The notes beneath the pieces were generated by a model. That model did not search any database and was not told the DNA's origin. It saw only the letters and a list, made by a program, of their open reading frames with translations. The position numbers and the translations under genes were made by a program. A DNA stretch of 6,176 nucleotides, from IMG/VR virus record IMGVR_UViG_2534682092_000012; one strand, written 5' to 3'. Positions 2,061 to 3,023 of this stretch are shown here, in pieces (position 1 is the stretch's first letter; the number at the start of each line of letters is the position of its first letter). This stretch comes from a virus (taxonomy: Duplodnaviria; Heunggongvirae; Uroviricota; Caudoviricetes).

Positions 2061-3023
2061 ATGAGCAGCAAGCTTCATGGTCTTGTCTGGGAAGGGTGCG
2101 CCTTCACCGGCATGATCTTATCCAGGGTGGCGGTTATGGCCCGTCTTGCAGACTACAGCAATGACGAGGGCGTGTCATGGCCTGCCATTGAAACTATCCG
2201 GCGTCAGATCGGTGCAAGAAGTGAATCCACAGTGAAATCGGCTATTGCAGAACTGGCGAAAGAGGGCTGGCTGACGAAGGAAGAGCGTAAGGTCGGTGGG
2301 CGTAATGTAAGCAATATCTATCGGCTTAATGTGGAAAAACTCGAAGCAGCTGCGGCGGCGGCGCGTGAGTCATATAAACCGAAAAGAAAAATTAGCCCGG
2401 CAAAAAATGACCCGTTAACAGTTGACCCGTCAAATATTGACCCCTCAACGGTTGACCCGTCAAATTTTGATGGATCAACCGTTGATAAAAAACTGCCGAT
2501 TAGGGGGGCGATGATTGACCCCGATCCGTCAGTATTAAAACCTGATCCGTCAGATAAAAGATCTTCTTGTCCGGACGCTTCGCAACCGGACCCGCAGACG
2601 GCTGAACAGGATTTTTTAACCCGACACCCTGACGCGGTTGTGTTCAGTGCGAAAAAACGCCAGTGGGGAAGTCAGGAAGATTTGGTGTGCGCACAGTGGA
2701 TCTGGGGACGAATCGTGAGTCTTTACGAGCAGGCGGCCAGCTATGATGGCGAGATCACTAGACCGAAAGAACCCAACTGGACAGCATGGGCCAATGACGT
2801 TCGCACAATGCGGATGCTGGATGGCAGAACTCACAGACAAATTTGTGAAATGTTTGGGCGTCTCCAGCGGGATTCGTTCTGGGTAAAAAACATCATGAGT
2901 CCGGCAAAACTCCGGGAAAAATGGGATGAACTGGTTATCCGCCTGGGGCGTTTGCCTGCGCAGCGTTGCGTGAATCACATTTCTGAACCGGACACTGAAA
3001 TACCGCCGGGATTCAGGGGGTGA
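2061..3023 (+). CDS. Phage replication initiation protein (lambda O-like role): N-terminal winged-helix DNA-binding domain, with origin iterons inside the coding sequence
   Basis: Track ORF 2046-3023 begins at a GTG; the first ATG is at 2061 (MSSKLHGLVWEG...). The N-terminal region resembles HTH-type replication proteins (ARLADYSNDEGVSWPAIETIRRQIGARSESTVKSAIAELAKEGWL). The central low-complexity repeats DPLTV/DPSNI/DPSTV/DPSNF are encoded by the DNA iterons. It lies directly upstream of the DnaC-like loader gene. Confidence 0.8.
   Translation: MSSKLHGLVWEGCAFTGMILSRVAVMARLADYSNDEGVSWPAIETIRRQIGARSESTVKSAIAELAKEGWLTKEERKVGGRNVSNIYRLNVEKLEAAAAAARESYKPKRKISPAKNDPLTVDPSNIDPSTVDPSNFDGSTVDKKLPIRGAMIDPDPSVLKPDPSDKRSSCPDASQPDPQTAEQDFLTRHPDAVVFSAKKRQWGSQEDLVCAQWIWGRIVSLYEQAASYDGEITRPKEPNWTAWANDVRTMRMLDGRTHRQICEMFGRLQRDSFWVKNIMSPAKLREKWDELVIRLGRLPAQRCVNHISEPDTEIPPGFRG
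2403..2486. repeat. Putative origin of replication: iteron array with a 15-bp period, inside the replication initiator gene
   Basis: Direct repeats TGACCCGTTAA (2408-2418), TGACCCGTCAA (2423-2433), TGACCCCTCAA (2438-2448), TGACCCGTCAA (2453-2463) and degenerate TGATGGATCAA (2468-2478), followed by a short A-rich stretch (2481-2493). Related motifs recur at 2516-2532 and 2543-2553. The arrangement mirrors lambda ori inside gene O. Confidence 0.55.

Follow-up and report, generated by a model that had tools for sequence, protein, structure and literature searches.

Does the replication initiator gene of a lambdoid Escherichia coli prophage carry, within its own coding sequence, the origin at which the encoded protein acts, and if so, where does this origin begin and end? 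The question is raised by the IMG/VR virus record IMGVR_UViG_2534682092_000012, of which a stretch of 6176 base pairs (bp), here referred to as the window, was analysed. In this window lie the immunity and replication functions of a lambdoid E. coli prophage, and the list of open reading frames (ORFs) places its initiator gene, encoding 320 amino acids (aa), at 2061–3023 on the plus strand. In the middle of this gene a series of 15-bp repeats can be seen, and the sequence comparisons described below indicate that the region 2366–2600, in the part encoding the linker of the initiator, is very probably the replication origin of the prophage.

An earlier reading of the sequence alone (the sequence-only reading) had reported four near-identical 15-bp copies together with degenerate and downstream copies within the 2061–3023 coding sequence, and both direct reading and repeat tools confirmed all of them. 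Six units form a ladder at 2407–2493 (gene nucleotides (nt) 348–433) with a spacing of exactly 15 bp: unit 1, ATGACCCGTTAA (2407–2418), unit 2, TTGACCCGTCAA (2422–2433), unit 3, TTGACCCCTCAA (2437–2448), unit 4, TTGACCCGTCAA (2452–2463), unit 5, TTGATGGATCAA (2467–2478), and the degenerate unit 6, TTGATAAAAAAC (2482–2493). Four of the units consist of the palindrome TTGACCCGTCAA or a one-base variant of it, and this symmetry of the good units, TTGAC-CC-GTCAA, was absent from the sequence-only reading. The core of the fifth unit, TGATGGATCA, is a good site with its centre inverted, TGATGGATCA being the complement of TGATCCATCA. Distal copies are found at 2515–2532 (TTGACCCCGATCCGTCAG) and 2542–2553 (CTGATCCGTCAG). 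Tandem Repeats Finder described the region as a period-15 array of 5 copies at 2387–2470 and alternatively as a period-30 array at 2396–2485 (80–84% matches). A search for the motif TGAYSSRTCA, allowing at most one mismatch, gave 11 matches in the window compared to 2.5 ± 1.65 in shuffled sequences, with none of 200 shuffles reaching 11. Seven of the 11 start at 2408, 2423, 2438, 2453, 2468, 2522 and 2543, all on the plus strand, and no second cluster of the motif exists elsewhere in the window. Units 3–5 in addition form a 41-bp near-perfect inverted repeat (2445–2485) with the centre AAATTTT, its 20-nt arms (2445–2464 and 2466–2485) being 90% complementary and separated by 1 nt; a dyad centre of the TCAAAATTTGA type is found again in SfIV-like arrays. 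Read in the frame xxT GAC CCG TCA Axx the repeats encode D-P-S-x-x, that is the low-complexity linker that had been proposed. The residue before Asp is N, V, I, F or P in the window repeats and S, G or F elsewhere, and the T before GAC is present in 8 of 8 window copies and in 68% of the D-x-S sites over 82 genes.

Repeats of this kind may be conserved as a peptide only, an outcome that the sequence-only reading had named as speaking against an origin, but synonymous identity, TCA usage and an anchor-phased matrix all indicated conservation as DNA. The comparison included 80 loci encoding relatives of the N-terminal domain (N-domain; 53–77% identity), taken from species-representative genomes of many genera of Enterobacterales. 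In nearly all of them a ladder of 3–10 copies of TGAnnnnTCA, spaced exactly 15 bp apart, is located at the same place, with further copies approximately 33, 21 and 24 bp downstream of it. None of the three analyses selects on the motif itself. The relatedness of the loci inflates the statistics, but the difference between regions is seen within the same genes and, being internal, is robust. The Ser codon of the D-x-S sites in the linker is TCA in 394 of 431 cases (91%) compared to 232 of the 1508 other Ser codons of the same genes (15%; Fisher p = 2e-195, relatedness among loci not corrected for). Synonymous identity, defined as the same codon given the same amino acid and calculated pairwise from a codon alignment of 19 full-length orthologues, ranges from 0.31 to 0.53 in the N-domain and from 0.32 to 0.63 in the C-terminal domain (C-domain) and tail but reaches 0.72–0.91 at approximately nt 2391–2600, even though the ladder itself is where the amino acid identity has its minimum (0.33–0.44). 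When 46 distinct arrays were phased solely by the downstream anchor GGATCCRT, their 184 units gave the matrix TCTGA-[C][G/C]C[A/G]-TCAAAA, where TCTGA and TCAAAA are nearly invariant; of the third-codon positions, 3, 12 and 15 hardly vary (no AAG Lys codons), and the central positions 6, 7 and 9 are free. By these comparisons the repeats are under position-specific selection at the DNA level. No ORF of 40 aa or more in another frame overlaps 2376–2610, ruling out an overlapping ORF as the cause of the constraint. The interval 2403–2553 first proposed for the origin does hold the repeats, but the constrained element is larger and extends over approximately 2366–2600.

A slippage-prone DPSxx linker lacking any cis function of its DNA, with its similarity upheld by concerted evolution and horizontal transfer, would fit the low-complexity coding as well as the gain and loss of whole units, the latter following from the anchor position, which shifts between loci in steps of 15 bp. 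It would also fit the databases, in which many proteins of the family are partial or short and some break off near the array; a word-indexed protein search with the N-domain gave short or partial proteins only, which could serve for an alignment but gave no context. Pure selection on the peptide would however leave the synonymous positions of the orthologues free, which they are not, and since the conservation is position-specific, slippage homogenising entire units would not give rise to a pattern where third-codon positions 3, 12 and 15 are fixed and 6 and 9 free. The residues around the core differ, yet the T before GAC is usually kept, and where the N-domain is unrelated, the DNA palindromes at this place are unrelated as well. 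A function confined to the peptide is accordingly given very little probability.

When comparing the repeats with the type of N-domain encoded upstream of them, the two were found to vary together. In the window-like clade, characterised by the helix GA[KR]S.xTV..AI, the repeat is TTGACCCnTCAA, while in the SfIV-like clade with the helix GAGxSTVRTAI it is TCTGACnCnTCAAAA, the single site of the SfIV type being TCTGACCCGTCAAAA. In locus L080 both half-sites have changed together with the dyad symmetry kept (TGAACGTTCA), and in L083 the sites are TGAACCTTCA and TGAACCGTCA, related to that of L080 and with the same changed left half. Loci L065 and L081 are without a ladder and instead contain the repeated palindrome CCAGAATCTGG. 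The initiator of phage HannyBb has the same C-domain as the window (86% DNA identity) but an unrelated N-domain, and five palindromic units of 23 bp (CATCGGGTCAAAATGGCCTGATG type) with a spacing of 23 bp occupy the same gene position (L003, 1349–1464). The gene ydaU of the Rac prophage, encoding a DUF1376 protein, likewise has its own mid-gene direct and inverted repeats of the AAGCAGATGTTCAAACA type (L084, 2472–2578). Since the repeats change with the N-domain, this is the pattern to be expected from N-domains that each recognise the repeats directly following their own coding sequence, and we infer from it that the initiator binds the ladder sites through this domain.

The same observation bears on the suggestion that another protein, unrelated to the N-domain of the initiator, occupies the repeats, either a host factor or one of the phage DUF1627 and DUF977 helix-turn-helix (HTH) proteins. 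Pfam does give HTH-like matches in the products of 3748–4560 and 4561–5007, and conserved GATC sites in the region could recruit SeqA or Dam. The repeats nevertheless always accompany the N-domain and change with it, and the downstream genes vary widely among the loci (P, DnaC-like, PerC-like and methyltransferases), so that binding by such a protein seems very improbable.

To which family does the initiator belong? The full-length protein matches PHROG 391, "replication initiation O-like" (E 1e-114), and four regions can be distinguished: a winged-helix N-domain (aa 1 to ~100), the linker carrying the origin (aa ~105–180), a lambda-O-type C-domain (aa 182–293, from BLASTP) and a DnaT-like tail (aa 296–320, window 2946–3020). 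In Pfam the N-domain gives only HTH_36 (aa 25–71) and a weak DnaD_N match. An AlphaFold2 model of aa 1–103 (pLDDT 86.6) has a winged-helix fold, and its fold matches are mostly ArsR-, MarR- and PadR-like regulators, some of them solved on operator DNA; regulators of these types are typically dimeric. With BLASTP aa 182–293 align to aa 171–270 of lambda O with 45 of 112 residues identical (40%, E 9e-26), and no N-terminal similarity between the two proteins was found. Since the N-domain is of the HTH_36 type and the C-domain O-like, the initiator is by its sequence a mosaic, in which a different DNA-binding module with its own iterons is joined to an O-type C-domain, and is O-like in the C-domain only. 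Among loci L004–L083 one and the same cassette of N-domain and iterons is joined to at least 4–5 different C-terminal regions or tails (..IPPGFRG, ..ENAGFRS, ..HWNSPEAWENTL, ..ECSQR..G.AA and ..AEQAA..), corresponding to 2601–3023 of the window, and the point where they switch is located directly after the conserved origin block. The genes following the cassette vary as well and encode P, DnaC-like or PerC-like proteins, or are large ORFs that by eye appear methyltransferase-like.

The constrained element at ~2366–2600 consists of more than the ladder and also includes a conserved, moderately A/T-rich block, in which GATC sites occur, and a palindrome showing compensatory changes. On its left side an A-rich flank, TGAGTCATATAAACCGAAAAGAAAAATTAGCCCGGCAAAAA (2366–2406), is evident from nearest-neighbour stability; of all 30-mers in the gene 2366–2395 has the lowest stability (98.9th percentile of the window), and it is in this flank that the synonymous identity starts to climb (0.62–0.72). 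To the right of the ladder a cluster of distal sites (2494–2553) was defined from an inverted-repeat family and motif matches, comprising a degenerate inverted pair ending in TTGACCCC (2515–2522) and the sites GATCCGTCAG (2523–2532) and TGATCCGTCAG (2543–2553), which are 21 bp apart and each contain a GATC. The synonymous identity of this cluster is 0.80–0.87, and in 74 distinct loci its consensus is ..GATCCGTCAGTAAATTCAAAACAAGATCCATCAG.. and that of the region right of the ladder TTTTgACCCGtCAGAATCTGG-cGGgGATCCGTcAGTAAatTCAAaacaaGATCCATCAG-taaaAAacCttctTGTCaGgtTGCtgcGCAAcCcGAC. The block TCAGTATTAAAACCTGATCCGTCAGATAAAAGATCTTCTT (2529–2568, 68% A+T), conserved across loci, has the lowest stability of any 40-mer in the gene (97th percentile of the window) and is a candidate DNA-unwinding element. 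The two least stable segments of the gene, 2366–2395 and 2529–2568 (68–70% A+T), thus flank the ladder, though they are not the least stable in the window. GATC is found at 2473, 2523, 2544 and 2560, i.e. four times in 91 bp compared to once per 257 bp overall; three of these sites overlap with the block 2529–2568 and two lie within motifs conserved across genera, GGATCCGTCA and aGATCCATCA. Control of the origin by Dam or SeqA through the clustered sites is a possibility. DnaA boxes occur at chance level (13 matches versus 13.5 expected), and a single perfect box at 2330–2338 was set aside as its sequence differs in L004, the only relative compared visually. The stretch 2200–2800 gave neither promoter-like nor terminator-like sites.

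The right edge of the constrained block is an imperfect palindrome within the coding sequence, GTCCGGACGC-TTC-GCAACCGGAC (2569–2591), where the synonymous identity peaks at 0.91 (2571–2600). In 39 distinct loci 77% of the cells pair, compared to 68% when shuffled and 18–45% when the partner is slid, and changes on both sides were seen in 6 of 10 pairs (covariation score 0.195 versus 0.077). Possible roles are that of an origin component, a hairpin in the mRNA or a joint for recombination. The palindrome sits where the different C-terminal modules join. Its stem with compensatory changes, together with the fold of the whole region, which is far better than that of shuffled sequences (z = -4.6) and in the predicted single strand is dominated by the dyad 2445–2485, could be taken as a constraint on mRNA, with hairpins acting on translation or stability of the initiator message, rather than on DNA. 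Strong folding is however expected from any palindromic array and no Rfam family matches the region. In addition, conservation falls on the symmetric half-sites TGA and TCA instead of on long-range pairs, and the strand-symmetric inversion of the centre (TGATGGATCA versus TGATCCATCA) suits recognition of a duplex. An explanation by mRNA structure is, with this, hardly credible.

How does this layout compare with that of phage lambda? The sequence-only reading had proposed the lambda arrangement, with the origin inside the initiator gene between the DNA-binding and the C-terminal domain, and this could be upheld: the C-domains are homologous, the four annotated iterons of lambda occupy nt 349–433 of gene O and the ladder nt 348–433 of the gene in the window, relatives contain P genes, and repeated dyad sites are found between aa ~100 and aa 182. 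The DNA-binding domain upstream of the repeats is not of the lambda O type. The sequence-only reading was right in calling the 15-bp period shorter than that of lambda, for which the same tool gives four iterons of approximately 18–20 bp with start-to-start distances of 20, 24 and 23 bp. In lambda as in the window, the part of the initiator gene that encodes the linker contains repeats that are each dyad-symmetric, with an A/T-richer block to their right, and the gene belongs to the rightward early operon, behind the cro and cII-like genes, so that in the window transcription would pass through the proposed origin. The nearest relatives with the same type of N-domain and repeats, L004, L008 and L065, continue with Pfam Phage_lambda_P genes. 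The C-domain of lambda O is the half interacting with P, and the lambda origin has the order iterons, A/T-richer block and palindrome, which the order in the window parallels. On the other hand the window has palindromes of 10–12 bp every 15 bp where lambda has 18-bp sites every 20–24 bp, six or more sites instead of four, a weaker A/T-rich tract, an initiator ending in a DnaT-like tail and, downstream, a DnaC-like loader and not P. As in the Stx phages, lambda variants with six iterons, the number of iterons varies between relatives and adds residues to the protein. For lambdoid phages, a published description places the origin midway in gene O and has it consist of iterons, each an inverted repeat, and an AT-rich tract, extra iterons adding residues to O (PMC7466680), and the match between this layout and that of the window argues for an origin.

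Iterons of plasmids can serve both initiation and control. Sites bound by the initiator may in the same way be used here for control only, by autoregulation or for copy number and incompatibility through titration or handcuffing, with the true start of replication elsewhere. Such dual roles, known in general from plasmids, the weak A/T-rich tracts and a number of sites above that needed by lambda, two or three being enough there (PMC7466680), are all in line with this. What it leaves without a reason is that the ladder, the A/T-rich block and the palindrome follow a lambda-like layout at the same gene coordinates, that the entire 230-bp block is constrained, beyond the sites themselves, and that the window has no other cluster of the motif. 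Control as the sole function is considered improbable. None of the alternatives explains the co-variation with the N-domain and the lambda-like position together, which counts against them, and all four jointly keep a small but real chance of being right.

Some observations weigh against 2366–2600 being the origin. The A/T-rich blocks are modest, and several more A/T-rich stretches exist elsewhere in the window; the high DNA identity of the block could partly stem from recent horizontal spread of the cassette and not from selection; and the N-domain is HTH_36 where lambda O has Phage_rep_O. The only small circular record containing the module, the 15,977-bp circular E. coli "plasmid" NZ_CP148542.1 in PLSDB (L088), is of low quality with frameshifts in ydaT and in the initiator gene, and was rejected as evidence for autonomous replication. 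It consists solely of a prophage segment from cI to the lysis genes, 93% identical to the window, and is probably a low-quality assembly of such a segment, or alternatively an over-replicated or excised one. Another circle of 15.2 kb, OR902858.1 (icd', mcrA, pin/hin, tfaE), was taken as an excised e14-like element and likewise not used as evidence.

With 2366–2600 as origin, we infer that replication initiates at the repeats, and the sequence suggests a putative course of events in which the binding protein, the stoichiometry, the start site of melting and the contact between tail and loader are all deduced. The winged-helix N-domain, probably as dimers, would bind the palindromic sites of 10–12 bp, and six sites every 15 bp together with two to three downstream would build an O-some-like nucleoprotein complex. 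The moderately A/T-rich GATC block (2529–2568), and possibly also the left A-rich flank, would then melt, and the lambda-O-type C-domain and the DnaT-like tail would recruit host DnaB through the phage DnaC-like loader. This loader, of the YdaV type, is encoded directly downstream (3030–3776, plus strand; identified in Pfam as IstB_IS21 and Bac_DnaA, in NCBIfam as PRK12377 with 498 bits and DnaC with E 5e-91, and in PHROG 50 as "DnaC-like helicase loader") and is the presumed partner of the initiator.

An alignment of the tail, GRLPAQRCVNHISEPDTEIPPGFRG (aa 296–320), with the C-terminus of E. coli DnaT showed matches at 17 of 25 positions. The ending ..IPxGFRG is also found on the otherwise unrelated YdaU of Rac, on the initiators of SfIV and HannyBb and in about half of the 80 loci, while relatives paired with lambda P have W-rich tails instead. 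No DnaC-like gene could be detected within 3 kb of any locus among the 80 ending in ..GFRG, and in E. coli K-12 dnaT is located directly upstream of dnaC. A speculative proposal drawn from these alignments is that the tail serves helicase loading as a portable peptide for the docking of DnaC, DnaB or PriB. A wider reading, tentative and on the whole rather doubtful when mimicry by the tail and the dimer geometry are included, is that the N-domain and the 230-bp block form a self-contained, loader-independent cassette, linked to helicase loading by the last ~20–25 residues only. W-rich tails would then pair with phage P and the DnaT-like tail ..VN.[IV]S.PD..IPPGFRG with DnaC, which would be encoded by the phage in the window and by the host in most relatives, and the tail would mimic the C-terminus of host DnaT to capture DnaB-DnaC. 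With the sites 15 bp (approximately 1.4 helical turns) apart, neighbouring dimers would sit on alternating faces of the DNA, giving an O-some geometry unlike that of lambda. Should this hold, the tail peptide would point to the element of DnaT that recruits DnaB/DnaC in replication restart; how DnaT recruits them was stated as unknown in a structural paper from 2026 (PMC13377028).

Besides lambda, the closest known systems include the Shigella phages SfIV and SfII and the e14/CPS-53-type genes annotated as "replication protein O / primosomal protein I", all with an N-domain of the same family (66% identity). These genes share with the window the ladder of 15-bp units, which has TGACCCGTCA cores and keeps its position and reading frame, the distal GATCCGTCAG sites, the palindrome, the lambda-O-type C-domain and a tail ending in ..IPAGFRG, but the flanks of their units are TCTGAC...TCAAAA where those of the window are TTGAC...TCAA, and they are followed by a PerC-like gene and no DnaC-like gene. 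No paper on the origin of the SfIV and SfII phages was found in the open-access literature. In Rac the gene order is the same as in the window (repressor, cro-like, YdaT-like, initiator and a YdaV-type DnaC-like loader), YdaU has the same ..IPPGFRG tail and ydaU its own mid-gene repeats. YdaU is otherwise dissimilar to the initiator and its AAGCAGATGTTCAAACA-type repeats are unrelated; with only the last 19 residues matching, it was rejected as an orthologue. An active origin, oriJ, has been reported for Rac (PMC3945230), and the ydaU repeats constitute a candidate position for it. Another comparison is with the origins of iteron plasmids (Rep_3/RepA, pi and TrfA), which have in common with the window a winged-helix initiator, a cluster of sites beside an A/T-rich region and DnaC-type delivery of the helicase. 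Plasmid iterons are usually ~17–22 bp, phased at roughly two helical turns or about 22 bp and located outside the rep gene together with DnaA boxes, in contrast to the window with its 15-bp period, sites inside the gene, DnaA boxes at chance level and no Rep_3 domain.

A full-text search with the core TGACCCGTCA gave unrelated primer matches only, and in the open-access literature work on lambda and Stx phages and two mentions of oriJ were found but nothing describing this origin. As far as the open-access search reaches, the lambda principle in this family of initiators and iterons is undescribed, and its variations are within a known kind and would not surprise a specialist. The biology confirms the lambda paradigm rather than changing it, although the observation on the tail could open a new question. 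The initiator gene is matched in 3265 of 5426 complete E. coli genomes, with at least 80% of the gene covered in 1514, where it is annotated only as "helix-turn-helix domain-containing protein", and in one of these genomes the prophage adjoins ompW. The family of N-domains and repeats is also present in SfII, SfIV, phiP27-like, Klebsiella and Yersinia phages. The results thus offer an origin annotation at base level for a widespread module and a data set of about 80 natural initiator-iteron pairs for a recognition code. Recoding or codon-optimising the linker would probably destroy the origin, and the array explains why assemblies and gene calls may break in the initiator gene.

In the remaining parts of the window the gene for an S24-peptidase cI-like repressor (635–1408, minus strand) is followed by a P22-Cro-like gene (1401–1616) and a YdaT/CII-like gene (1613–2038) upstream of the initiator gene, and downstream of the loader by DUF1627 and DUF977/Ren-like genes. 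The last ~1.2 kb of the window (~5000–6176) are markedly more A/T-rich and hold most of its least stable segments. When compared to strain 602354, the replication module is 99.6% identical from nt 1607 on, but the repressor and cro region differs (635–1408 of the window compared to its counterpart L085, 10803–11556), and by this alignment the start of the ydaT-like gene is a mosaic junction between the two. The annotation of strain 602354 has the anti-phage genes iteA and iteS directly behind the DUF977 gene (record 4030942–4034335), in a stretch that aligns to the end of the window with 99.6% identity. It looks like a cargo island of defence genes within the prophage.

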